From: Enterobacteria phage IME_EC2
DNA length: 41,510 bases
Reading direction: 5' to 3' (one strand)
Sequence record: NC_047742.1
Shown: piece after piece, positions 2,831-41,510 of the stretch
How the letters are laid out: each line of letters opens with the position of its first letter
Numbering within the stretch: the first letter of the stretch is position 1
Program-made: the position numbers and the translations under genes
Notes under the pieces: generated by a model
The model's database searches: none
What the model was told of the DNA's origin: nothing
Seen by the model: the letters and a program-made list of their open reading frames with translations, nothing else

Positions 2831-3616
2831 TGCCGGGTTTACCGTGACCGTACAAGCGATCGAGGTGACGGTGTTCGGCGGGACGGTGTTCGAACTGGTG
2901 GCAATACAGCGGTATTGACCAGCGTCCCCAGCCTGCGGCGTGGCAATGTTCAGCGTTGCGGCGGTTGCTCCAGTGATGCCACCTGCGCCTCCGTTGGCGA
3001 CGTTGCTCCAGGAGGTCCCGCCGTTCGTGGACTTCTGCCACTGGTAGGAGTACGGAGCGAGGCCCGTCGCCGCGTTGACCACGACCGCCAGCGAGTCCGC
3101 GACGTCTACCGTCCAGGTATCGGTCGCCGGGAGGTTGGTCGATAGGGCGATCGCCTGTTTCGTGCGCTCGCGCAAGGACTCCACCATCTGGCCCGTTGCG
3201 TCGGTTACTCTCACGAAGTAATCCCCGTTATTATTAGCCGCTGAGTAAGAGGCGATCGTGTAGCTGTCCTGATCGGCCCCCACTGGGTTGTCGGTGCTGG
3301 AGGCACGACGGAACCAGGCGAACGAGTAAGGAGCCACGCCGCCCTCCATCTCCACGGAGAACTCCTTCGAAGCGCCCCCGGTGACGTAGGTCGCGCCCGC
3401 GTCGGTTGCGTTGTTGCCCGGAAGGTTGACGGCGAACGTCAGCGCCGGGACAAGGTTCGGATCGTACTCCATGTAAAACATCCCAGTAGGATCCAGACCT
3501 TCGGGATCTGCGTCCAGCCAGATCACATCTTTCTGGGGAACCGTGACCGGATCAAGGATTCGCGTCACTTTCCACCCGAACATATCCGGGCGGTAGTACC
3601 GATGCCAAAAAGCCAT
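2828..3616 (-). CDS. Ig-like (Big/Hoc-type) domain protein
   Basis: Two Ig-like repeats (PYSFAWFRR, PYSYQWQKS, GQYRC); ORF trimmed to second ATG (MAFWH) with GAGGA upstream. Confidence 0.65.
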   Translation of the reverse strand: MAFWHRYYRPDMFGWKVTRILDPVTVPQKDVIWLDADPEGLDPTGMFYMEYDPNLVPALTFAVNLPGNNATDAGATYVTGGASKEFSVEMEGGVAPYSFAWFRRASSTDNPVGADQDSYTIASYSAANNNGDYFVRVTDATGQMVESLRERTKQAIALSTNLPATDTWTVDVADSLAVVVNAATGLAPYSYQWQKSTNGGTSWSNVANGGAGGITGATAATLNIATPQAGDAGQYRCIATSSNTVPPNTVTSIACTVTVNPA

Positions 3617-3688
3617 AATTTTGTCCTCGTGAAATTGTGCGGTATACTGCCCCGGCATTGTAGATCATCTCTGGCGTTAAAACGAAAG

Positions 3689-16272: not shown

Positions 16273-19200
16273 TTATTGTTGCTGCTGGTCGCTTGCTGCC
16301 GCTTGCCCGCCAGTACCGGAAAGGAATCCGACGATCCCGGCGCGGTTAATGGCTGCTTTCTCCTCCGGGGTCATGGCCTCGATCAAGGCTTTCCACTCCG
16401 GCGAGTTTGCCGCCGCTTCCTCGGCCTCTCGGACGAACGTCCGGCCCGCTGGGGTCAGCTTCCCGGAACTCTGCGCGGCTGCGGCTTGTAACAGTTTATT
16501 GAAGTTTTCACCAGAAAGCACGTTGTCCGCAAGAACAGATCGCGGAACACGAGTCGCTCGCCCTGCTGCCTGAGCCGCTGCGAGCGCTGCATTACCCGCC
16601 GGGCCTAACGTGTAGAGCGCTGCGGCATGTTTACCCAGCCAGCCCGCCGCGCCGTATAGCTTCGACATAACGCCACCAGCGCCCGGATCGTCGAATCGCT
16701 TCACGAAGTCGGAGATCGATCCCGTCGTCGTGGTAAAGCGTTTCGCCCGGTCGATCCCGTTCGCCACGCGGTAGATCTGCATGAGGCGCTGGCGCTGCTG
16801 GCGCGGTAGGTGCTGCATGACGTTTCCTAACGTCCCGTTAGCCTGGGCGGTCTTGTACCAGTCCACGAAGCCGGGGATCGCGAAGGTATCGCGGGCGCTA
16901 CGTGCGCCCAGGGTACGCTCCAGCGCGTTAGCCACTACGTCGGACTTGAGGCTGTCCGGGGTTGCGGCCATCAGCTTGTCCCAGTCCCTCGCGCTGCCGC
17001 CCTTCTTGCCCAGGTTCAGGATCGCACTCTGCACTTTCCCGGTGATCGAGTTGTCGAGGTTTTTCCCCAGGACTTCGAGGGCCTGAGTCTCCAGGTCCTT
17101 ACGGCGTTTAACAAGCTGTTTCCCCACATTCCAGTCGTCCGCCGCGCCATACTGGGCCGCGACTCGCTCCTGGTCGTCAGTCAGGCGGGCATAAAGCTGT
17201 TTAAGCTGCGCCGGGACTTCATCCTTAAACGGGCCGTTTTTCTTGTTCAGCGCCTCGCCGACCTGCTTCCGAAGGGTGTCCAGTCGGGCGTAAGTCGGGA
17301 TCGTCGAAACACTCTGATCAGGGAGTCCCGTCACTGGGTCCACCTTCCCAGGCTTCGGAGCCATCCAGTCGAGCGCCTTTTTCTCTGCTGCGGAAAGGTA
17401 CTCGTCCCCGCCTAACTCGTCAGCCTTCGCCGTCAGATAATCCACGGTGCTGTCCGGCCTTACTTCGGCGTTGCGGGGGATCTTGGCGCTCACGGCGTTA
17501 TAAGCCTTTTCCGCCTCGTCGCCCAGGCCGTCGATAATGGCGCGGGTACGGGCGGCAAACGCCTGATCGATGGTCTGCGCGTTCATGCTGGTCATGCTGT
17601 CGATCAGCTCGTCGGCCTTCTCACCTAAGCGAGAGATCCCGTTAATCTGCTGAGTTTCCAGGTTGGAACTTTTCCGGCTTACAAGCTGCTGGAGCGTGGT
17701 CCTAAACTGCGTATCACGCGCATAAGCCGCCGGGGTCAGTTGATCCTCCATCCCCAGATCGCGGGCGGTTTTCATCAGCTTTTTGTCCACGTCCGCCATG
17801 TTCGCGAGGTCGATCATCTCGTCAGAAGCGCGGAGGGTTTCACCGTTCGCGCCCTGTACGGTCTGATCTGGCGTCAGTCGGAACTTGCTCGCATCACGAG
17901 CCACAGCGTCGGAGATTCCCGCCTCGGTCGCCTGGGTGGATCGGGTTGCGTCCGCTGCTGCGTCTGCTGCGCCACCTGCGGCCCCCTCGCCGCCCCTGAG
18001 CGCATTCCACAGCCTACCAGCGCCACCGATAACAGCGCGGCCCACAGCCTCGCCAGCGGGCGCTAGTGCGATATTCGTCAGCGTCTCCTCCGGGTCCCCA
18101 CGACCAGCGGCGATCGCGCCCGGCACAGCACGAGCCGCCGGAGCCGCGATCCAGTTCTGGGTCATATCGGCGAGACGGGTCGCGAAGCTGGTCGCGTCCG
18201 GCGCTTCACGAACCAGTCCGAGGAGTTCGGTCGCCGCCTGAGCCTTACGCGGGCCAGGTAGCGGCGCGAGCATATCGCCGATCAGGGTCCCGATCTGCGC
18301 GTATTTGTCAGTAGGGGCCAGACCAGGGATCCCCCCAGGCGTGATGGTTGGCGCTTGGGTGCTTTCATCCACCAGCCCGACGCCCTTCCCGGCATCGGTC
18401 ACGGCTTGGGAGATCATGTTCGCCAGGGAGATCGGCGTGTTCAGCAGGTCGATCCCCGTCTGAGCCACGCCGCGAGCGCCCTGATCCAGCGAGTGGAGGA
18501 CGGTCTGGCCTAACTTTTCCCAGTTTCGGGCGGCTTCTTCGTTTGGATCGGTTTGTCCGGGCTGATTAGCTCCGCCCTGCTCTCCGTTACCGTTCGGCGC
18601 TGCCGCCCCTTGTGCGCCATCAGATCCCGCTTGATTAAGTGCATTGCCAGCGGAGACGGCTGGGACTTGTTGATCGGCTCCGGTTGCTCCGGCTCCGTCT
18701 GCGGCTGCTGGTGCCTGGTAGTCTCCGAACTGGTCGAAAACATTACCGCCAGCGCTCGGAGATCGTGCGCTGGTTGCGTATTGAGTAGGTTCGCCGCTGC
18801 CATCGCTGCCAGCGCCTCGCCCAGTCCATTGATTAAACCGATCATCCACATATTGACGCCCCTCCGGGCCTGGGGTTGCCTGGCCCGCCAGTTGTTTGTC
18901 TACGTTGCCGGGGCCGTCGTGGTAAGCCTGGAGAGCCGTCCCCCAATCTCCGTAGCGCTGATACATGCGGGAAAGATACTGCGCCCCCGCGTCCGCTTGC
19001 ATTGCCGGATCCTGCGCCAGTTGCGCCGGGTCGTAGCCCATATCGCGGGCCGTTCCCGGCATCACCTGAGTAAGCCCCATTGCGCCCTTGCTGGAGGTCG
19101 CAGTGGGATCGCCGCTGGATTCTTTACCCATTAACTGAGTCATGAGGCCAGCAGGGATCCCCCACTTGGCCCCGGCGCTCTCCACCAGATCAGCATAACC

Positions 19201-19296
19201 TCCGCCAGTGGATCCCGCTTGCTGCGGGATCTGATTTGGGAGCGCTTCCGCACTTTCCGGCATATTCTGATCAAACTGGTCGAAGATGTTCGCCAT
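16273..19296 (-). CDS. internal virion/ejection protein (gp16 position) with N-terminal lytic transglycosylase (SLT) domain
   Basis: SLT motifs GKESSGDP...KGAMGLTQVMP...ALQAYHDGPGNV; 1007 aa, Ala/Gly-rich; last gene before tailspike. Confidence 0.7.
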   Translation of the reverse strand: MANIFDQFDQNMPESAEALPNQIPQQAGSTGGGYADLVESAGAKWGIPAGLMTQLMGKESSGDPTATSSKGAMGLTQVMPGTARDMGYDPAQLAQDPAMQADAGAQYLSRMYQRYGDWGTALQAYHDGPGNVDKQLAGQATPGPEGRQYVDDRFNQWTGRGAGSDGSGEPTQYATSARSPSAGGNVFDQFGDYQAPAAADGAGATGADQQVPAVSAGNALNQAGSDGAQGAAAPNGNGEQGGANQPGQTDPNEEAARNWEKLGQTVLHSLDQGARGVAQTGIDLLNTPISLANMISQAVTDAGKGVGLVDESTQAPTITPGGIPGLAPTDKYAQIGTLIGDMLAPLPGPRKAQAATELLGLVREAPDATSFATRLADMTQNWIAAPAARAVPGAIAAGRGDPEETLTNIALAPAGEAVGRAVIGGAGRLWNALRGGEGAAGGAADAAADATRSTQATEAGISDAVARDASKFRLTPDQTVQGANGETLRASDEMIDLANMADVDKKLMKTARDLGMEDQLTPAAYARDTQFRTTLQQLVSRKSSNLETQQINGISRLGEKADELIDSMTSMNAQTIDQAFAARTRAIIDGLGDEAEKAYNAVSAKIPRNAEVRPDSTVDYLTAKADELGGDEYLSAAEKKALDWMAPKPGKVDPVTGLPDQSVSTIPTYARLDTLRKQVGEALNKKNGPFKDEVPAQLKQLYARLTDDQERVAAQYGAADDWNVGKQLVKRRKDLETQALEVLGKNLDNSITGKVQSAILNLGKKGGSARDWDKLMAATPDSLKSDVVANALERTLGARSARDTFAIPGFVDWYKTAQANGTLGNVMQHLPRQQRQRLMQIYRVANGIDRAKRFTTTTGSISDFVKRFDDPGAGGVMSKLYGAAGWLGKHAAALYTLGPAGNAALAAAQAAGRATRVPRSVLADNVLSGENFNKLLQAAAAQSSGKLTPAGRTFVREAEEAAANSPEWKALIEAMTPEEKAAINRAGIVGFLSGTGGQAAASDQQQQ

Positions 19297-20621
19297 TTAT
19301 AGCCCCTCCGGTAGAAAACCGTATTTTTCCTGAAATTGAGCCTTAACGCTAGGGGTAGGGTTCTGCATCAGGTAATTAATCGCGGCTTGCGCGTTCTGCT
19401 GCGGAATCCCCCCAGCGCTGAGGCGTCCGACGGCTTCCTGTTTCGCGTCGTCCTGCTTGATCTCGCGACGGTAGGACTCCACGCGCCCGCCCTGCGACTT
19501 CTCGATCGCGTCCTTGCCCTTGCTGAGTGCGTTCACGTAGCGCGTCATAACGTCCTTAAGCTGCTGCTCGCTCATGGTGCGCGGGTCTGCGTTGATCAGC
19601 GCCTGAGCGGCTGCGCGGCCCTCCTGCTCGGTCACTGGACCAGTACCACGCAAAGACTGAATACCCGCGACGCGGGCCTGGTCTTTAAGCTGGTTAAACT
19701 GGTTCATGATCTCCGCCGTGGCATCGCCGCCACCAGTAACCCACGACGCGCCCCTGTTAATCGCGCCCAGGTTGCCCGTCACGTAGGCCAGATCCTTACG
19801 CTGGAGGAGTCGCTGGGCCTGATCGATCGCCGTGGTGATCGGGGCGAGTTGCGTCTCGTAGGTCTGGAGAAAATCGCGCTTCGTGTTGAGGCTGTCGGCT
19901 TGCATTTTTGCTGCTGCTGCACGTACTTCTGTCGCTCAATATCGTTCTTTTCCTGCGCGATCCTCGTGTTGAGTCGCTCGGTCTGGAGTCCGATATATTT
20001 CAGATTTCGGTCTGCCGCGTTGCTCGCTGCGGTGACGTCCTGCCCCCTGATTACGGTCTGGTTCTTCATGTACTCTTTCGCGTAGTCCAGTTGGTCCTTG
20101 CTGGTATTGCTCGCCAGGTGGAGCGCCTGGACTGAGCGCTTGAACGCTTCCGGGTCCTGCGCTGCCGCCTGGTAGGCCACCTGCGGATCGATTCCCAGCG
20201 CCTGGAGCGCCGGGGCGTTCTGCTGGACGAATTGCTGGGCCATCTTCGGCCCCTGCGAGATCGCGACGTCGGCCTGGCTTGCAAGCTGGGATCCCTGCTG
20301 GCGTCGAATATCATCCACCAGTCCGAGGCGCTTCTGGAGCGCTTCGATCTGGGTAGGGTATTTGTAGGCCAGTTCGGAGATCTTGGACGGGTCGCCCGCT
20401 GCTGCTTGCCAGTCCTGATTGAACTGGGCCATTTGCGCCTGATTAGCTTGCGCCGCCTGAGTGGCGAGGCCCTGCTGGCGGTTCGCGATCTGCTGCGCCG
20501 TGTTGTTCTGAATCTGCCCGATATTGGCGAGGGTGTTAGTCCCCGCCGCCTGGATGTTCTGGAGGTTGTTCCACAGATCGCCCGGATCTGCGCCACCGCC
20601 ACCGCCTAGTAATTGCGCCAT
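19297..20621 (-). CDS. ejection protein (gp20 position), reading frame interrupted near 19905-19912
   Basis: Two ORFs (19779..20621 and 19297..19905) overlap in different frames; both Gln/Ala-rich; the upstream ORF becomes junk-like after an A5 run where the downstream frame opens. Confidence 0.45.
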
Positions 20622-21283
20622 TAGATCATGCTCCCGAACATGCCGCCGAACATGGACGTAAACGTGTTAGCGTCCTGCGCTGCGCCTTGTGCCATTTGAT
20701 TGTTAGCCGTTGCTGCGGTATTCCACGGCAAGGCCGCTTTTTGTCCCAGGATCTGGCCCTTCTGGCCCGCGAGTGCGGTCAGTGCGTTGGTGGTCCCGGT
20801 AGCCGCTGCGGACTGAGCGCCAGCGCCAGATAAGCCGACGTTAGTCAGGCCCAAAAGCTGGTTAAACATGTCTTGCTGCTGCGCTTGCATCGCGTTCAGA
20901 TAGTTCTGGCCCAGCGTAGGCGCGATCGACGCGAGGCTGTTCTGGGTAGCCGTGGATCCGAGTCCGCCCGTCGCTTCTGCGCTGGCAAGCTGGGAACGTC
21001 GAGCCGCTTCCTCGTTCATGGCGAACTCCTGCCCGCCGTAGTAGTCGGAAAGTAGCTGCTCGCGGTCAATCGGCTGGCCCGCGATCGCAGTCAGGCCGGG
21101 GATAGCGTTCGTCCCTGCCTCACGGAACGGGCTTAACCATTCCGCTTGTTGCGCCTGGAGTTCGCGCTGGTAGTCCATCTGTTTATCGGTCGCTTTCTGC
21201 TGCTGCTTGAGCGCCTTCCTCGTACCGATCCCGCCTAAAACGGACGAGACGGCCCCACCGATCCCGCTAATTGCTCCGCCCAT
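20621..21283 (-). CDS. ejection protein (gp7 position), Gly/Ala/Gln-rich
   Basis: Gly-rich N-terminus and Q/A-rich body; assigned by position in P22 gene order. Confidence 0.5.
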   Translation of the reverse strand: MGGAISGIGGAVSSVLGGIGTRKALKQQQKATDKQMDYQRELQAQQAEWLSPFREAGTNAIPGLTAIAGQPIDREQLLSDYYGGQEFAMNEEAARRSQLASAEATGGLGSTATQNSLASIAPTLGQNYLNAMQAQQQDMFNQLLGLTNVGLSGAGAQSAAATGTTNALTALAGQKGQILGQKAALPWNTAATANNQMAQGAAQDANTFTSMFGGMFGSMI

Positions 21284-21668
21284 TTGGTCCTCTCCTCAAG
21301 AAAATAATTTCCGCCTCTCTGCCGTCCACCAATTGTACAAGCTGGGGAGGGCTTTCAACAAATCCGACTTTTCGGACCACGTTCCGGGCGTGTTTGTGAC
21401 TCATAAGGACCGGAACGCGGATCGCATAGTGGCCCCAGTGGTAGAGAAAAGCCAGACAAGCCTCGCGTGACCGTCTGCGCCTGGGTGGATCCATCGCCAT
21501 ATGACCATCGATCCCGCCTTCATCGTTCGCCATGATGGCAAACACGCAACAACGATCCCACAGGAAATATTTTGCGACGGCCTGGCGAGGCCACTCCGGC
21601 AAGCCCCAGGCGTGGAGGAGGTCCACGCCGGAGTCTGGCACGAGTTCGATCATCTCTTTTTGTTCCAT
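21267..21668 (-). CDS. hypothetical protein (133 aa) in gp14 position
   Basis: ORF track; no confident family; weak GNAT-like C-terminal resemblance not relied on. Confidence 0.45.
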   Translation of the reverse strand: MEQKEMIELVPDSGVDLLHAWGLPEWPRQAVAKYFLWDRCCVFAIMANDEGGIDGHMAMDPPRRRRSREACLAFLYHWGHYAIRVPVLMSHKHARNVVRKVGFVESPPQLVQLVDGREAEIIFLRRGPNGRSN

Positions 21669-21677
21669 GCGGTCCCC

Positions 21678-22448
21678 TTACTGCGTCGCGATTAGTTTGA
21701 TCTGGGTAGCAGTGAACGCGGAGCCGTTCGCCTGGATCGTCATGTTGATCCCTGGGCTGGTAATGTCGTCCCCCTCCTCCACGGAGAAAAAGGTGTTGAA
21801 CAATAAGTTATCCGTAGGGGTTGCCGGGTTGCGACTCACCACGAGAGTGTCGGGGACGACGGTCCCGAAAGTGATCTCCATCGACCTGTTAGTGGCCCCG
21901 CTCGCGAACGATCCCACCAGGCTGATTTTGAGTTTAAGATCCTTGTTCTTATTCAGCGCCACGAGTCGCCCGGTCGCCATGTTGAAGAACGGGGCCAGAC
22001 TGCCGGACGTCGGGGTGAGGGCGGCGAGGAGCGTCAGGAGGTTGGAGGGCGTCGTGGGGATGTTAAGCGAGATCCCGCTGTAGACGACCTCGGATTTCTG
22101 GCGGGTCATGTACACGCGCCAGTCCTCCAGATCCTCGATCCGCGTCTCCAGATCGATCACCTTGTCCAGCAGGTAGTCCACATCGTCCTCTAACAGCGTG
22201 AGGCGGTTCTCTGCGCTGTCGAGTCGCTGATCGTGGAGGGCCAGCGTCACGTCCTGCTGGTCGTTTCGGATGCGCTGGGCCTCGGCGATCTCCTTCGCCT
22301 CGTCTGCGGTGGACTCCGCTCCGTCTGCGACGTCCCCCGTCTCCTTCGTGACTCCGTTCAGCCTCACCAGCCAGTCCCGGAAAGCGATCGACGTTCCCGG
22401 CGGTAGGCTGCTGGTGTTTAGCTGCTGAATCTTCTGTTTAACTGGCAT
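21678..22448 (-). CDS. tail needle protein (gp26 position) with coiled-coil N-terminal half and C-terminal knob
   Basis: Heptad-like coiled-coil region (LEDDVDYLLDKVIDLETRIEDLED) followed by a beta-rich C-terminal domain. Confidence 0.55.
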   Translation of the reverse strand: MPVKQKIQQLNTSSLPPGTSIAFRDWLVRLNGVTKETGDVADGAESTADEAKEIAEAQRIRNDQQDVTLALHDQRLDSAENRLTLLEDDVDYLLDKVIDLETRIEDLEDWRVYMTRQKSEVVYSGISLNIPTTPSNLLTLLAALTPTSGSLAPFFNMATGRLVALNKNKDLKLKISLVGSFASGATNRSMEITFGTVVPDTLVVSRNPATPTDNLLFNTFFSVEEGDDITSPGINMTIQANGSAFTATQIKLIATQ

Positions 22449-27473: not shown

Positions 27474-27740
27474 TTATTTCGTGGCGGCTCTTACGACCTG
27501 CTGGGAGAGGTAGAGCGCCTCGTGATGCGGTGGAACCGAAGCGGGGATCACGTAGTACAGCGCGACGTCTCCCCCGTCCTTCTCGAAGCCGTGGATCCTC
27601 TCACTGGCTACGATTCGCCAGCGGTTCCCCTCTGGCCCGGTCAGGAAGCCGTCCAGGTCGTGGAGTTCCGTCTCCACCTGGGCCAGCTTCGCGAGGGATG
27701 CGACTCCCCCGCTCGGAAAGGCTAAATAGTGATGTTTCAT
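27474..27740 (-). CDS. hypothetical protein (88 aa)
   Basis: ORF track; ATGA overlap with upstream gene. Confidence 0.5.
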   Translation of the reverse strand: MKHHYLAFPSGGVASLAKLAQVETELHDLDGFLTGPEGNRWRIVASERIHGFEKDGGDVALYYVIPASVPPHHEALYLSQQVVRAATK

Positions 27741-28173
27741 ACGATCTCGGCGTCCTCCACGTCGTCGTCTTTGCGCGGGTTGACTTCTTTCGCGCTGTCG
27801 GCTGCTGCCACGTAGTCGCCCTCGATCGGGCCTTTGTAGGTCAGTTGTTTGATGCTCGCGATATCGGCGAGGAGTTTCTGTTCCTGCATGTAGAAGTTAG
27901 CGCGGAGTGACTGGAGGCCAGTCTCCAGCAGTGGGAGAGCCAGTTCCGCGATGCGCTCGGCGGTCGGCTCGGTGTAGACGATCTCGATCTCACGAGTTTC
28001 TAACAGGACCATAGCCGGGTCCGTGTTGTCCTTGATGTGCTTCTCCACGCTGTACAGGTCGCCCAGGTCGTGGTCGGAGACGTAAGTCTCCCCGCGCTTG
28101 TAGAAGCTGGAGCGTGTACCGTCCGCGACGCACAGGCAAATGAATTGTTTTTGATGTAAGTTTTAGTAGTCAT
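27737..28173 (-). CDS. hypothetical protein, apparent frame change near 28140 (A5 run)
   Basis: ATG at 28173 with SD opens a frame (MTTKTYIKN) that turns junk-like; the -1 frame is protein-like and continues into ORF 27737..28048, which has no good start of its own. Confidence 0.4.
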
Positions 28174-28248
28174 TTTGTAGTCTCTCTGGTCAGTGGCGGG
28201 GACCATTCCCCGCCGACACAATCAATATAACATTTGATAATCTGGGCG

Positions 28249-34643: not shown

Positions 34644-34709
34644 TGTTCGATCTCTCTCGTTGGGTGGAATTGGCCCCAGCATATCGCCGGGGCGCACATC
34701 ATGCAAGCG

Positions 34710-34892
34710 TTATCTAATGAAGGTATCGAAGAACCACAGCAGACCACAGACGCACAGGAACAGCGTCACGCCTCGCCATGCCAGATCGAGCCAGTCGATC
34801 GAGGTGTCCGGCTCTGCTGGTTTTATTACCCAGCCCGCCGCGATCTCGCGCTTCGTTGCTTCGAATTGTGCCAGCGTTACCGGGGGACGCAT
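34710..34892 (-). CDS. possible small membrane protein (60 aa)
   Basis: C-terminal hydrophobic segment LFLCVCGLLWFF; start uncertain, no clear SD. Confidence 0.3.
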   Translation of the reverse strand: MRPPVTLAQFEATKREIAAGWVIKPAEPDTSIDWLDLAWRGVTLFLCVCGLLWFFDTFIR

Positions 34893-34933
34893 GACGAAAA
34901 AGGGGGCGTTCCGATCCCCCCAGTCGCTGGCCC

Positions 34934-35893
34934 TCACTTTACGCGGCGATACTTCTCGACGTCGGACCATTCGACCACGCCAGCCTCCAGGATGTTCTCC
35001 CCGCCGCCATAGGTGCGGATCTCCACCACTTGATCGTCAGGGAGATCGTTCGGCTTGTACTGCCATTCCCACACGATCCAGTCCCCGACGGGTTGCCAGT
35101 CCTTCGACTGCTCGCCAGTCTGCGGACGGTCCAGCAGGGCGTCCAGCAGTTTCCCCGCCGTGTCGGCCCCGAAGCGCGTCCCGGTGAGTTGCTCGATCAG
35201 TTTGCGGCACTTCTCGGCGTTGCGAGCGTGCCAGCGGAGGCTCTGCTCCGTGTCCTGCTTGCTGCGGTTCTCCGACCACACGATCCGCTCGTGGTCCGTC
35301 TCGCAGTTGGTGATCTTCTCCTGCTGGCTATGCCACCAGACCAGATCGCGGAGTGCTCCGGTCCCCATCCTGAATACGTTCCAGTTATACGGGAGGCGCT
35401 TGTCGTCGCACTCCTTCACGTAGCGCTCCAGCAGTTCCACGCGCTGCTCTGCGTCCACTGCTGCGCGACGGTTGCGATCGCTGTCGTCTGCCTTCTTGAC
35501 CAGCTCGCGGGCCTTCTGCTCGGTCCATGCGATATGTTTCGGGTTGCCATCGATCGGGCGGAAGTGGGTCGGCACGTCCAGCGCGTCCAGGATGCCGCGA
35601 AGGTTCACGTAATACCCGTTCAGCTTCTCGTCCGCGTCGATCAGCGTCTGGATCCTTGCTTCCAGCGCCCGCTCGTGGGACTTGTCGCGCCACTTCTCGG
35701 ACTCCTTGAAAACGCGTTCCAGCGCGTCGTCGGAGAGGAGCGGAAGGTGGCACGGAGCCAGGTCCGGCTCGGCCTTAAAGCCCTGTTGAATCGCGTCCGT
35801 AACGTCGGCGATCCAGTTGGCCCGGTACTGGATGCGCTGGCGGGCTTCGGTGGAGTTGAGCGCGTAGGCCACGCCCTTGTCGTGTGAGTTCAT
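34934..35893 (-). CDS. hypothetical protein (319 aa)
   Basis: ORF track; long, diverse composition; no family recognised. Confidence 0.6.
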   Translation of the reverse strand: MNSHDKGVAYALNSTEARQRIQYRANWIADVTDAIQQGFKAEPDLAPCHLPLLSDDALERVFKESEKWRDKSHERALEARIQTLIDADEKLNGYYVNLRGILDALDVPTHFRPIDGNPKHIAWTEQKARELVKKADDSDRNRRAAVDAEQRVELLERYVKECDDKRLPYNWNVFRMGTGALRDLVWWHSQQEKITNCETDHERIVWSENRSKQDTEQSLRWHARNAEKCRKLIEQLTGTRFGADTAGKLLDALLDRPQTGEQSKDWQPVGDWIVWEWQYKPNDLPDDQVVEIRTYGGGENILEAGVVEWSDVEKYRRVK

Positions 35894-36499: not shown

Positions 36500-36856
36500 T
36501 CAGTACATCCCATTAGTGAGTAAGTATAAACGACGGTTCCGCATGGAGCGGACCATCTGCGAGGATCCCCAGCCACCAGGCACACGGAACATCAGCCCGG
36601 AGCCAGCGGCCCGGCAATAAAGGCGGTTGCGGTCGCGGAAGTCGCGAAGCTGTCGCCCGGTCTGCGTCCCCTTCGGGTCCACCAGCAGACAAAACACTGG
36701 CGGCTCGCCGTAGCGATCCCGGAGGTCGGCGAGGTGCTTCTCCACCATCTCCGCCACGGCGTTCTCCGCTGCCTCCTTCGCGCAATCATCGCACATCCCG
36801 CCCTCCCTTCCCGACGGGATCGGGAGGTGGCAACGTTTGCAGTAATCAAAGACCAT
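36500..36856 (-). CDS. Cys-rich protein (118 aa; CKRCH ... CDDC)
   Basis: ORF track; possible zinc finger; two overlapping alternative-frame ORFs judged spurious. Confidence 0.5.
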   Translation of the reverse strand: MVFDYCKRCHLPIPSGREGGMCDDCAKEAAENAVAEMVEKHLADLRDRYGEPPVFCLLVDPKGTQTGRQLRDFRDRNRLYCRAAGSGLMFRVPGGWGSSQMVRSMRNRRLYLLTNGMY

Positions 36857-37127
36857 CAGATAATCCCTCGCTCATGTTGTCGGCGACCTGCTGCATGTAG
36901 ATCGCGTAAAGGTTCTGGCCTATCGCCAGGATATCCTCCGGGCGGAGGATGGCCCGCGCCGTGTGGACGTTGGAGAGCGCCGCCACCAGGACGTCGCGCT
37001 GTACGTGGTTAAGCCGGAGTTCGCCCCACGCCGGGGAGTCTGCCCGGTGGATCACCTGCTCGATCTTGAGGTGGTCGAACCACACGAGGATCTCGCGCTC
37101 GTCTGGCTTTTCGGTTGCGTCTGTCAT
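36846..37127 (-). CDS. hypothetical protein (93 aa)
   Basis: ORF track. Confidence 0.5.
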   Translation of the reverse strand: MTDATEKPDEREILVWFDHLKIEQVIHRADSPAWGELRLNHVQRDVLVAALSNVHTARAILRPEDILAIGQNLYAIYMQQVADNMSEGLSDGL

Positions 37128-37170
37128 TGGATCCTCCCAGGATGCCCGGCTCTCGACCGGGCGGTGGTTG

Positions 37171-37389
37171 TCAGATGTTCGCGGCGATGAATGCCAGGAC
37201 TTCGCGGAGGTGCTTCTCGTCGCGGATAGTGGCTGGCAATTCCTCTTTCACGCTGCTGTCGAGGTAGATATTGCCATTCCATGTATAAGAGCCGTTAGGG
37301 TTGACCAGATAGGAGAACATCCACTCACAATCATTGTCAGCTTCCCACACGCACAGCAGGATCTTTCCGTCGTCGTTGATATCTTCCAT
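37171..37389 (-). CDS. hypothetical protein (72 aa)
   Basis: ORF track; preferred over overlapping low-complexity ORF 37248..37511. Confidence 0.5.
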   Translation of the reverse strand: MEDINDDGKILLCVWEADNDCEWMFSYLVNPNGSYTWNGNIYLDSSVKEELPATIRDEKHLREVLAFIAANI

Positions 37390-37518
37390 CGTAACGTCCA
37401 GGCCGCGCTTAACTGCGTATTTTTGGTGGTTGCGTTGACTGCTGTCATGGTCTTGCCCTCTGAGTTGGTGGGCGTCTCGTCGCCCGGTGAAAACATATTA
37501 TCAATTATCACCGGGGAC

Positions 37519-37717: not shown

Positions 37718-37947
37718 TTCCCCAGCCTCACCTTGCGGACGATCGTAGCTGCGGTGTCGTAGGCGTCGCGCTGCCGGGGTGAGACGCTGCTCTCCCGGAG
37801 TTCGACCAGACCACGCTCCAGGACTTCCAGCGCGGCCCAGCGCCCGGACAAGTCCATGATCACCTCCTCGGCGTCGCGGTCGATCTTGCCTGGCGGGTGT
37901 CCCTCCGCCATCAGCTTGATCTCCTCGGTGGTCATTGGCTTACGCAT
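37714..37947 (-). CDS. hypothetical protein (77 aa)
   Basis: ORF track; ATGA overlap. Confidence 0.5.
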   Translation of the reverse strand: MRKPMTTEEIKLMAEGHPPGKIDRDAEEVIMDLSGRWAALEVLERGLVELRESSVSPRQRDAYDTAATIVRKVRLGK

Positions 37948-38236
37948 CAGCGCCCCCTTTCGGTCCCAGCTCCTGGTCGATAAAGTCCTGCGCCATGCGG
38001 TCGGCGTCCTCTGCGTTCGCGTTCTGGATGGCCTCCAGTTGCTTCTTGCGGTGGTCGTGGAGGAAGCTCTCGACGGCCTGGTGTGCGAGCGCCGTCGCCT
38101 GGTTGTGGGTGTAGCCCTTGCGCTTAAACTGGGCGTAAGCGTTATCGAGCAACGTCTGGCGCTGGTGTGGGCCTACATACATACGCGAGATATCCGCGAC
38201 GCCTGATTTCTGCCCTGCATTGTCTTTCATCATCAT
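37940..38236 (-). CDS. hypothetical protein (98 aa)
   Basis: ORF track. Confidence 0.5.
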   Translation of the reverse strand: MMMKDNAGQKSGVADISRMYVGPHQRQTLLDNAYAQFKRKGYTHNQATALAHQAVESFLHDHRKKQLEAIQNANAEDADRMAQDFIDQELGPKGGADA

Positions 38237-38848: not shown

Positions 38849-40396
38849 TCATTTTTTGGTCGCATGTTCGAAGGCGTGGAAAAAGTCCGTCCGCTTAATC
38901 GGCGGCTCTGCGAAGTTGCGGAAGTGATCGGATAACATGCCTTTGGTCAGCTTCGGCAAGCGGTAGCCCTTGTCCTTGCGCTGCTGCGAGTATTCCACGA
39001 CGTAGGCCAGCAGTCGGATCGCCTGTTCCTCCTTCTTGCTGCGCTTGCGCGTGTCCTCCGGCTTCTCGCCCTCGTCCTTCTCGGCTGGCACTGCCTCCAG
39101 CGCGTTAATGACGACCAGCGTCCCCAGGTTGTCGCCGATCTCCCACGCCGCCGGGTTGGCCTTCGCCTCCGGGCGTACAGGCTGCATCCTCGCCAGCGCC
39201 TCGCGCTTCATCTTCACCAGGTCAGGCGGTAACTTCGCGGACTTCGTGCGCATGGCTCGCGCCGGGAGAAGCGCACAGCCTTTGGCCTTCGTGTGCTCAA
39301 TCACAAAAAGCTCTTTGTCCTTGCACTTCTTCACCATGATCTCGAATCCGGCGTTTGCCCTGAGCGTTGACGCGCCACGAGCGCCGCGCTCGGTGTCCTT
39401 CCCGGTGTGGTGGATGATCATCACGGCACAGTTAAGCCATTCAGCCAGTAACGCCGCGTTACGCATCAGGATCGCCGCCACGTTGTTGTCGTTCTCGTTG
39501 AAGTCGGTCCCGCCCTCCCAGCGGTCCGGCTCGTCGCCCTTGCCTGGGATCATGCGCTCGCCCACTTTCTGGCCCGCGCTGTTGGCGCTGTAGGTATCGA
39601 TCACGATCAGGGAAAGCGGGTTCAGGCCGAAGAATGGGGACGCCTTGATGGTTGCCGCGAACGTCTGGAGTTCGCTCTCGCGGTGTAGTGGGACCTGCTG
39701 GGACAATACCCAAAAGTTGGGTAACGGCTCGTTCTTGTTCTGCGTGTACTTCCATCCCGCGTAACGTTCACGGACGCCGCTCGCATCCTCCGGCGCGAAG
39801 TACATCACGGATCCCTGTCGGACTGGCAAGCCGCCGAAGTCGATCCCGGTGGCGACACAAATCGCCATTTGTAACGCTGCGAACGTTTTCTTTGCGCCGG
39901 ACTCGCCGACCAGGAAGCCCACGGAGCGCTCCGGGATCAGCGACTGGATCACATAGTTAACGGGCTTGATCTCGTTCGACTTGTTCAGGCTGGCGATCAG
40001 CGGGTCGTCCATTGCCTCGACCGCCAGCGCCTCGTCGATCTTCTTGCGCTGCTTCTCGCGCTGCTTCGCGAGGAGTTCCTGGCGACGTGCTTCGTCCTTC
40101 TCCTCGTCGGTGAGGTCTGACGTCTTGACGATCGTCGGCTTGTCGTTGCGGACGGTTGCCGTCCACTCTGCGGCCTCGTGCTCGTCGAAGTCGAAGAACG
40201 CCCCGGCATCCTGGGCGGATTCTGCTTCTCTCGCCGCGTACAGGCTGGCCTGTTCCTCGTAGAACTCCATAGGAGCCTCTGGCACGTCGTCAGCAGGTGG
40301 AGGCGTTACCGGGCCGGAGAACTCGCCCCGGACCATCTCGATCAGCTCCTCCTCGCTGCGCTCTGGTGTCGGCATTACTTCATCATAATCAGTCAT
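38849..40396 (-). CDS. RepA-like RecA-fold AAA ATPase (putative replicative helicase)
   Basis: Walker A GESGAKKT, Walker B-like LIVIDTYS, IIHHTGKD; acidic disordered N-terminal region. Confidence 0.7.
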   Translation of the reverse strand: MTDYDEVMPTPERSEEELIEMVRGEFSGPVTPPPADDVPEAPMEFYEEQASLYAAREAESAQDAGAFFDFDEHEAAEWTATVRNDKPTIVKTSDLTDEEKDEARRQELLAKQREKQRKKIDEALAVEAMDDPLIASLNKSNEIKPVNYVIQSLIPERSVGFLVGESGAKKTFAALQMAICVATGIDFGGLPVRQGSVMYFAPEDASGVRERYAGWKYTQNKNEPLPNFWVLSQQVPLHRESELQTFAATIKASPFFGLNPLSLIVIDTYSANSAGQKVGERMIPGKGDEPDRWEGGTDFNENDNNVAAILMRNAALLAEWLNCAVMIIHHTGKDTERGARGASTLRANAGFEIMVKKCKDKELFVIEHTKAKGCALLPARAMRTKSAKLPPDLVKMKREALARMQPVRPEAKANPAAWEIGDNLGTLVVINALEAVPAEKDEGEKPEDTRKRSKKEEQAIRLLAYVVEYSQQRKDKGYRLPKLTKGMLSDHFRNFAEPPIKRTDFFHAFEHATKK

Positions 40397-40536: not shown

Positions 40537-40980
40537 GTGGACTTATTCAAACAGAAGCGAACTACGGCCCCGGCTACCGCCGGAGCGCCGCGCAAGACGG
40601 CGGCGGAGAAGCGCCAGGAGATACTCGACAAGATAGCGCCCACTGATCTGTCGGTGCTGGACGCTATCGACAAGGGGCTGATCGATCCGTTTGTACCCAC
40701 GGACGAGACTCGGAAGGCGTTCTCCATGCTCAAGCCGTCGGAGCAATTGTTCGCCGCGTTCTTCGAATGCCCCGGCGTTGACCAGCGGAAGCTCTCCGCG
40801 CTCTGCCGTCACACGGCAAAGATGGAACGCGCCGGACTGCTGCGTGATCTGCGCGTTGACCGTTCGAAGCTGGCCCCGCCAGTGTCGGATCCGATGGAGT
40901 TCCCCCCAGGCGTCGAGATTGGCCCGGAGTTGGCCCTCGCTGCCTTACAATGTAAACAAGCCATGAGGAAAGAGAGATGA
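40537..40980 (+). CDS. hypothetical protein (147 aa)
   Basis: GTG start with GGAGG SD; divergent from the AAA ATPase gene. Confidence 0.5.
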   Translation: MDLFKQKRTTAPATAGAPRKTAAEKRQEILDKIAPTDLSVLDAIDKGLIDPFVPTDETRKAFSMLKPSEQLFAAFFECPGVDQRKLSALCRHTAKMERAGLLRDLRVDRSKLAPPVSDPMEFPPGVEIGPELALAALQCKQAMRKER

Positions 40981-41510
40981 TCAGATATATCGCAGTAGGT
41001 GAGCCGGAATTTAATTGCGAGTGGTTCCTGAGTATCGCCGCGATCAATTCGTTCAGCCTGGACGAAAAGACCGGACGCGCCCGGCTCCACTACACGCTCC
41101 CCGACACGGAGGAGGGAACGATGGAGGATTGTCTGAGCGTGGAGCCGTTCGAAAAGGTTCGCCCGCTGCTGCTGGGTCTGCCGCCTGATCCGCTTATCCT
41201 GGATCTGAGTAAGGCCGAACAGGACAAGATCCGCCGGACGTTAAACGCCACCCAGCAGACGCTCGACGAACTCCAGCCACGGCTCCAGCCTGGCCCTACT
41301 GTCGGCCTCGACTCGGACGTGTGGGCCGTGGTCAAACTGCTGGAGTCTCGCGAGTGGGCCGAACACTGCACGACGACCGAACTCGGCGGACGACTGGAGG
41401 CTGAGATCACGAAGCTGATCGGGCATGATAACGCGGCGACGAACAAGCTCCAGCGGGCGGAGCAATTGCTGGCTGAGATCCATCACGCGGTAAACAACGA
41501 CGGCGGGCTG
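40977..41510 (+). CDS. hypothetical protein, 3' partial (runs off window end)
   Basis: ATG overlapping upstream stop (ATGA); 178 codons open to the last base; absent from ORF track because no stop is reached. Confidence 0.5.
   Translation, partial: MIRYIAVGEPEFNCEWFLSIAAINSFSLDEKTGRARLHYTLPDTEEGTMEDCLSVEPFEKVRPLLLGLPPDPLILDLSKAEQDKIRRTLNATQQTLDELQPRLQPGPTVGLDSDVWAVVKLLESREWAEHCTTTELGGRLEAEITKLIGHDNAATNKLQRAEQLLAEIHHAVNNDGGL

Follow-up and report, generated by a model that had tools for sequence, protein, structure and literature searches.

The closest described counterpart of the locus considered here is the ejection apparatus of phage P22, whose gp7, gp20 and gp16 are packaged in the capsid, ejected, and build a conduit across the cell envelope (PMC8402733, in excerpt). 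Once released, P22 gp20 forms a dodecameric channel through which DNA is delivered: its N-terminal part (residues 1-255) forms the outer-membrane pore and the periplasmic barrel, the latter corresponding to residues 186-255, and its C-terminal domain (residues 256-435) forms a plinth on the cytoplasmic membrane that contacts gp16 in models (bioRxiv 10.64898/2026.09.03.749273). Particles of P22 mutants in gene 7, 20 or 16 are non-viable (bioRxiv 10.64898/2026.09.03.749273), and the non-viability of particles with a defective gene 20 is also described in excerpts of PMC8954989. Packaging in the virion and ejection to form a trans-envelope channel are known for P22 only.

IME-EC2 is a lytic phage from hospital sewage with a genome of 41,510 bp, determined on the Ion Torrent PGM from 785,489 reads (Li et al. 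2014, PMC3896407). The window analysed here is the whole 41,510-nt IME_EC2 genome NC_047742.1; all coordinates are positions in it, and the genes of the gp20 region lie on the minus strand. The features on which the argument depends are the following:

19297..20621, minus strand: whole gene for an ejection (DNA transfer) protein of the P22 gp20 type; its deposited length of 1325 nt becomes 1326 nt (441 aa) with one A added
19779..20621, minus strand: upstream ORF of 280 aa; residues 1-239 are gp20-like, residues 240-280 and the stop are out-of-frame read-through
19297..19905, minus strand: downstream ORF of 202 aa, corresponding to residues 240-441 of the intact product
19905..19909, minus strand: A5 homopolymer (T5 on the plus strand), the frame-break site, one base missing for a continuous frame
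19779..19904, minus strand: overlap of both ORFs, about 127 nt, where the upstream frame is a junk-like tail
20621..21283, minus strand: P22 gp7-like ejection protein, 220 aa, intact (PF25688 P22_gp7, 71.2 bits; identical to AGZ17820.1)
16273..19296, minus strand: gp16-position protein, 1007 aa, intact, with an N-terminal SLT lytic transglycosylase domain (PF01464, 81.1 bits)
21678..22448, further upstream: Sf6-type needle knob gene (PF16532)

Residues 30-205 of the upstream ORF match Pfam PF16928 (Inj_translocase, P22 injectosome DNA/protein translocase) with 52.8 bits against a cut-off of 29.7, and the same family is precomputed for 42 of 42 homologues. The gp20-like gene is placed between the gp7-type and gp16-position genes and downstream of the tail needle; a 'phage stabilisation' gene was also found by Pfam search further upstream of the gp7-like gene. 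IME_EC2 and P22 thus share the succession of needle, small ORF, gp7-like, gp20-like and large gp16-position protein, and since this is the P22 order 7-20-16, the designation as a gp20-position ejection protein is right. The protein downstream, at the gp16 position, is a difference from the P22-type system, being 1007 aa long with an SLT domain; its homologues in relatives are annotated as transglycosylase or DNA transfer protein. Once the frame is restored (see below), the IME_EC2 protein is ~24-26% identical to the gene 20 products of P22-like phages over residues 71-438 and ~30 aa shorter than P22 gp20 (471 aa). A phmmer search of the repaired protein against PDB sequences gave nothing at E up to 0.01, and the break was therefore mapped through the published domain boundaries of P22 gp20; at ~25% identity this mapping is approximate.

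Unlike P22 gp20 and the Murrayvirus orthologues (sortsyn_61, Lumpael gp44 and KMB41 WPJ70614), the deposited IME_EC2 gene is broken into ORFs of 280 and 202 aa. The coding strand reads CAGCAGCAGCAAAAATGCAAGCC at the junction. The upstream frame crosses it as TAC GTG CAG CAG CAG CAA AAA TGC AAG CCG and the downstream frame as A ATG CAA GCC GAC AGC, so that the step from the upstream to the downstream frame at the A5 run is -1. Past the run, the upstream frame continues for about 42 residues of low complexity, rich in R, S and P (KCKPTASTRSAIFSRPTRRNSPRSPRRSIRPSDSSSVRIWPT), up to a stop at 19779-19781; this tail has no counterpart in any homologue, either by tblastn against the sortsyn proteins or in the protein search that returned the 42 homologues. 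The tblastn alignment of the upstream ORF to sortsyn_61 stops at aa 241, and the downstream ORF is 99.5% identical to sortsyn_61 aa 239-441 (tblastn). As deposited, the locus has no single continuous ORF of about 440-470 aa. Inserting one A in the run is enough to give an uninterrupted, stop-free ORF of 441 aa, the product of which is 98.4% identical to sortsyn_61. We attribute the missing single ORF to a sequence error and not to biology, for reasons developed below.

The comparison with relatives points in one direction. A megablast search with 19000-21300 returned 12 phage records, all within or near the genus Murrayvirus, the best being Escherichia phage sortsyn (98.3% identity), which together with IME_EC2 makes up the species Murrayvirus EC2. 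The gp20-like gene measures 1325 nt in IME_EC2 and 1326 nt, as a single CDS for 441 aa, in each of sortsyn, Lumpael, KMB41 and ST231. Its alignment to sortsyn contains exactly one gap, where IME_EC2 has CAGC-AAAAATG and sortsyn CAGCAAAAAATG. Thus, the difference is a single-base indel within a homopolymer, and the closest relatives differ from IME_EC2 in the length of the run at this very place. The closest protein cluster comprises sortsyn_61, two Logan-assembled proteins of 441 aa (P0065 and P0066) and one protein from an ENA metagenome scaffold (L010). The break site is A6 in sortsyn and in the ENA scaffold, and A6 is implied by the intact proteins P0065 and P0066; sortsyn_61, P0065 and P0066, all intact at 441 aa, read QQQQKMQADS. 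The scaffold, an independent assembly, is 99.2% identical to IME_EC2 over 4450 nt, with this A as the sole gap. At the same position Lumpael, KMB41 and ST231 are without an A run (CAGAAGGCG or GCGAAGCTA).

Wider searches agree with this picture. Of 42 homologues retrieved from 5.8 billion proteins, 30 reach 68% identity or more, and each of these has a length of 438-441 aa. The short ones are only the 280-aa product of IME_EC2 and two proteins of 252 and 272 aa, one of them labelled 'partial' by its source and the other lying on a contig of 1,759 bp. When the repaired protein was compared by tblastn with 50,697 phage records, each match spanning residue 239 was one in-frame piece, P22-like gene 20 included. 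An exact-sequence look-up of both ORFs among 153 billion gene positions found the split ORFs on no other contig, and a look-up with the coat protein for further close relatives brought up nothing beyond sortsyn and a 2.7-kb scaffold. The downstream half differs from sortsyn by 4 codons only (3 synonymous, 1 non-synonymous), which is too few to show selection or relaxation.

An earlier note on this DNA, made without database searches, had proposed that the two ORFs are halves of one gp20-position ejection gene, separated by a -1 change of frame at the A5 run, the upstream frame becoming junk-like immediately after. All of this was confirmed: the PF16928 match, the gene order and the single ORF of relatives identify the halves, the coordinates, motif and direction of the change are correct, and the R/S/P-rich tail is without a match in relatives. 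The comparison with intact homologues that it proposed has now been carried out and gives a single ORF of 438-441 aa in relatives. Its expected size of about 470 aa does not hold for this genus, where the intact protein has 441 aa; 471 aa is the length of P22 gp20.

The origin of the deposited sequence bears directly on the question. The 280-aa ORF is exactly AGZ17819.1 / YP_009784227.1, a 'prophage DNA injection protein' that forms a singleton protein cluster with IME_EC2 as its only member, and the needle-knob protein is likewise an exact IME_EC2 entry. Each of the two 30-nt terminal reads of Table S4 in PMC3896407 occurs exactly once in the IME_EC2 sequence: the reverse read at 38180-38209 (printed position 38179) and the forward read at 37910-37939 (printed position 37880), an offset of 30 nt that equals the read length. 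We treat the offset of 37910 from 37880 as the coordinate convention of that paper and not as a discrepancy. Taken together, the exact protein entries, the genome length and the terminal-read matches establish that the deposited sequence is that PGM assembly. The sequence therefore comes from a platform prone to homopolymer-length errors; in excerpts of PMC5556038 and PMC6084394, indels are the dominant class of PGM errors. The public record annotates the downstream half as a protein of 161 aa (AGZ17818.1) with a GTG start at 19782, directly after the upstream stop. AGZ17818.1 carries the same product name as AGZ17819.1, and its GTG start hides 41 genuine gp20 residues. As to the layout of the record, it is circularly permuted: the sortsyn_28 homologue at 40977-41510 continues at 1-72, being split because the start of the record is arbitrary. 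A terminal redundancy of about 300 bp and a packaging start near 37.9-38.2 kb are given in PMC3896407.

The gp20 break is not isolated in the window. Whole-genome alignment with sortsyn shows 9 isolated homopolymer length differences, the run being shorter in IME_EC2 in 7 of the 9, and a tblastn search of the 62 sortsyn proteins against IME_EC2 reveals four genes that change frame, all of them at coding-strand A runs that are shorter by a single A:

19905 (break, approximate), minus strand: gp20 homologue, A5 in IME_EC2 against A6 in sortsyn
27737-28206, break about 28153, minus strand: sortsyn_51 homologue (156 aa in sortsyn), A5 against A6, ACATCAAAAACAATTC
37171-37450, break about 37425, minus strand: sortsyn_35 homologue (92 aa), A5 against A6, ACCACCAAAAATACGC
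38849-40396, break about 38858, minus strand: sortsyn_30 homologue (562 aa), primase/helicase-like, A6 against A7, ACCAAAAAATGATGA

The sortsyn_30 homologue, labelled 'putative primase/helicase' in Lumpael (gp14), is cut to 515 aa in IME_EC2, its final 47 residues being in another frame down to about 38712. The sortsyn_51 homologue is split near residue 20, leaving as its longest ORF 103 aa from a GTG, and the sortsyn_35 homologue has lost its first 8 codons, the longest ORF being 72 aa from an internal ATG. The same lesion thus recurs at about 28153, 37425 and 38858, each time in a gene that relatives have intact. Both Lumpael and KMB41 carry sortsyn_30 and sortsyn_35 unbroken and at full length, the sortsyn_35 proteins of sortsyn and Lumpael are 100% identical, and the KMB41 homologue of sortsyn_51 is also intact, aligning across the break in a single frame (sortsyn_51 has no match in Lumpael). 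The differences are concentrated in the longer A/T runs. Among the sortsyn runs with clean flanks, length differs in 5 of 15 A/T runs of at least 6, in none of 34 A/T runs of 5 and in none of 41 G/C runs of at least 5. Outside homopolymers, the comparison with sortsyn shows no indel that breaks a CDS.

The alignment with sortsyn also shows differences of other kinds. A deletion of 2 nt lies at about 37466, in the intergenic sequence just upstream of the sortsyn_35 homologue. Intergenic run differences are found at about 2830 (T6/T7, IME_EC2 given before sortsyn), 3717 (T8/T7), 7143 (T9/T8), 13995 (T7/T8) and 33817 (A6/A7); several are in terminator-like contexts, a GC stem followed by a T run, and none touches a CDS. 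These could be further PGM miscalls or real variation. Identity to sortsyn falls sharply, or the alignment is lost, in mosaic patches at 2835-3660, 16306-16620, 34700-35110 and 36713-37129. Among the sequences affected are the homologue of a Hoc-like decoration protein (60% aa identity), the C-terminus of the SLT/gp16-position protein and part of the early genes, in which nothing corresponds to sortsyn_36; the patches have the appearance of ordinary modular exchange among Murrayviruses.

The data strongly suggest that the frame break in the gp20 homologue is a property of the deposited sequence and not of the phage. The phage DNA would carry A6 at 19905-19909, recorded as A5 in the Ion Torrent PGM consensus, and the true gene would be one ORF of 1326 nt encoding a 441-aa homologue of P22 gp20. 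That the phage DNA has the base and only the sequence file lacks it is what we infer from (i), a difference of one base only, (ii), its homopolymer context, (iii), the intactness of the homologues, (iv), the sequencing platform and, (v), the recurrence of the lesion. As in other undercall artefacts of the Ion Torrent or 454 type, a single base is deleted in an A/T run, several such deletions occur in one assembly and conserved ORFs are broken; the present example differs in its rather short runs (true length 6-7) and its deep coverage, and is otherwise an ordinary case. Sequencing error was already the leading suspicion of the earlier note, and it is borne out by the PGM assembly, by the A6 of the four closest relatives and by three further A-run undercalls. 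The same note had counted the gp20 break as the second homopolymer-associated one of the window: the break itself stands and the count does not, at least four single-A deletions breaking a CDS relative to the closest relative. It had also left room for a pseudogene or for slippage, both of which are now unlikely on the same three grounds.

The most serious competitor of an undercall is a real one-base deletion in the sequenced stock, a frameshift mutant or pseudogene that may have arisen during laboratory propagation, with the N-terminal 239 residues sufficing for function or the two halves acting separately. Homopolymers are natural hotspots of real replication-slippage mutation, A runs among them, and the homopolymer context alone can therefore not tell error from mutation. 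Moreover, coverage was very deep, with 785,489 reads over 41.5 kb, and random errors should have been eliminated by it, so that an artefact requires a systematic undercall; this is typical of PGM flow-space homopolymers. With P22 gp20 as the guide (barrel 186-255, plinth 256-435), the break is also close to a boundary between domains, and an ATG sits exactly at the break. Against this, a real deletion would mean that a single plaque-forming phage had acquired four frameshifts independently, one of which truncates the primase/helicase-like gene and two of which lie in genes that are expected to be essential. In addition, the look-up among 153 billion gene positions shows the split in no other assembly, P22 gene 20 mutants are non-viable, the plinth formed by the P22 C-terminal domain lies against the cytoplasmic membrane and, in models, touches gp16, and the platform accounts for the pattern more simply. 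We thus consider a real deletion very unlikely. In its boldest form, for which we see only a slim chance, the A5 allele would truly be in the stock and the phage infectious with a split gp20, with halves that are separately made or assembled or that rare slippage rescues. By analogy with P22, the outer-membrane and periplasmic barrel would then be represented by the N-terminal 239 residues and the plinth by the C-terminal 202, and this, if true, would show the two modules of the ejection channel protein to be functional in trans. A naturally split gene is however difficult to reconcile with the junction itself: the Met that the ATG at 19905 encodes lies inside the intact protein and is not shared by Lumpael, KMB41 and ST231, the ATG is not preceded by a Shine-Dalgarno motif, and the upstream ORF extends 127 nt beyond it, which makes termination-reinitiation coupling unavailable.

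A systematic undercall must also be weighed against recoding, that is a -1 ribosomal frameshift or transcriptional slippage at the A5 (CAGCAAAAAUGC) that would produce full-length gp20, perhaps along with a truncated form. The locus does resemble the programmed -1 frameshift of the lambda G/GT type in having overlapping 0 and -1 ORFs that meet at an A run within a cluster of virion-protein genes; the direction is the common one, and a tRNA-Lys on AAA could re-pair one base back on A_AAA_A. The likeness ends there, as IME_EC2 has no heptamer, stimulatory structure or conserved site, and no relative has two frames. The zero-frame sequence G CAA AAA U contains no X XXY YYZ heptamer, and since the zero frame is CAG CAA AAA UGC, only a single-tRNA slip would be available. 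An A5 is far shorter than the runs that give efficient transcriptional slippage. The downstream 107 nt fold no better than shuffled sequences (MFE -18.7 kcal/mol against a shuffle mean of -20.6, z = +0.60; 144 of 200 shuffles at least as good). Finally, the site is not conserved, the closest four sequences having A6 in a single frame and the distant relatives lacking the A run, and the two-frame architecture occurs in no homologue. The distant relatives without an A run, the missing slippery heptamer and the missing structure leave a programmed frameshift unsupported; we rejected it on the heptamer, the downstream fold and conservation, and give recoding at this site next to no credence. It is just as hard to credit the converse error, in which the A5 and the two genes are true and sortsyn and the others were over-called. 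Beyond the formal symmetry of a pairwise comparison nothing speaks for it, and it is refuted by at least 30 intact single-ORF homologues, assembled independently in different laboratories and on different platforms, most of which have no A run at the site.

An undercalled A run thus being by far the best account of the data, the region 19297-20621 should be read as one intact 441-aa homologue of gp20. No new biology is implied and the finding is ordinary. Its main value is the correction of an annotation: the IME_EC2 record is the exemplar of the species Murrayvirus EC2, and the two adjacent 'prophage DNA injection protein' CDSs that it lists, of 280 and 161 aa, should be a single 441-aa gp20 homologue. 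At least three other genes of the record are truncated in the same way, and such artefacts are inherited by comparative genomics, pseudogene counts, recoding surveys and protein clustering, for example as the singleton cluster formed by the 280-aa product.
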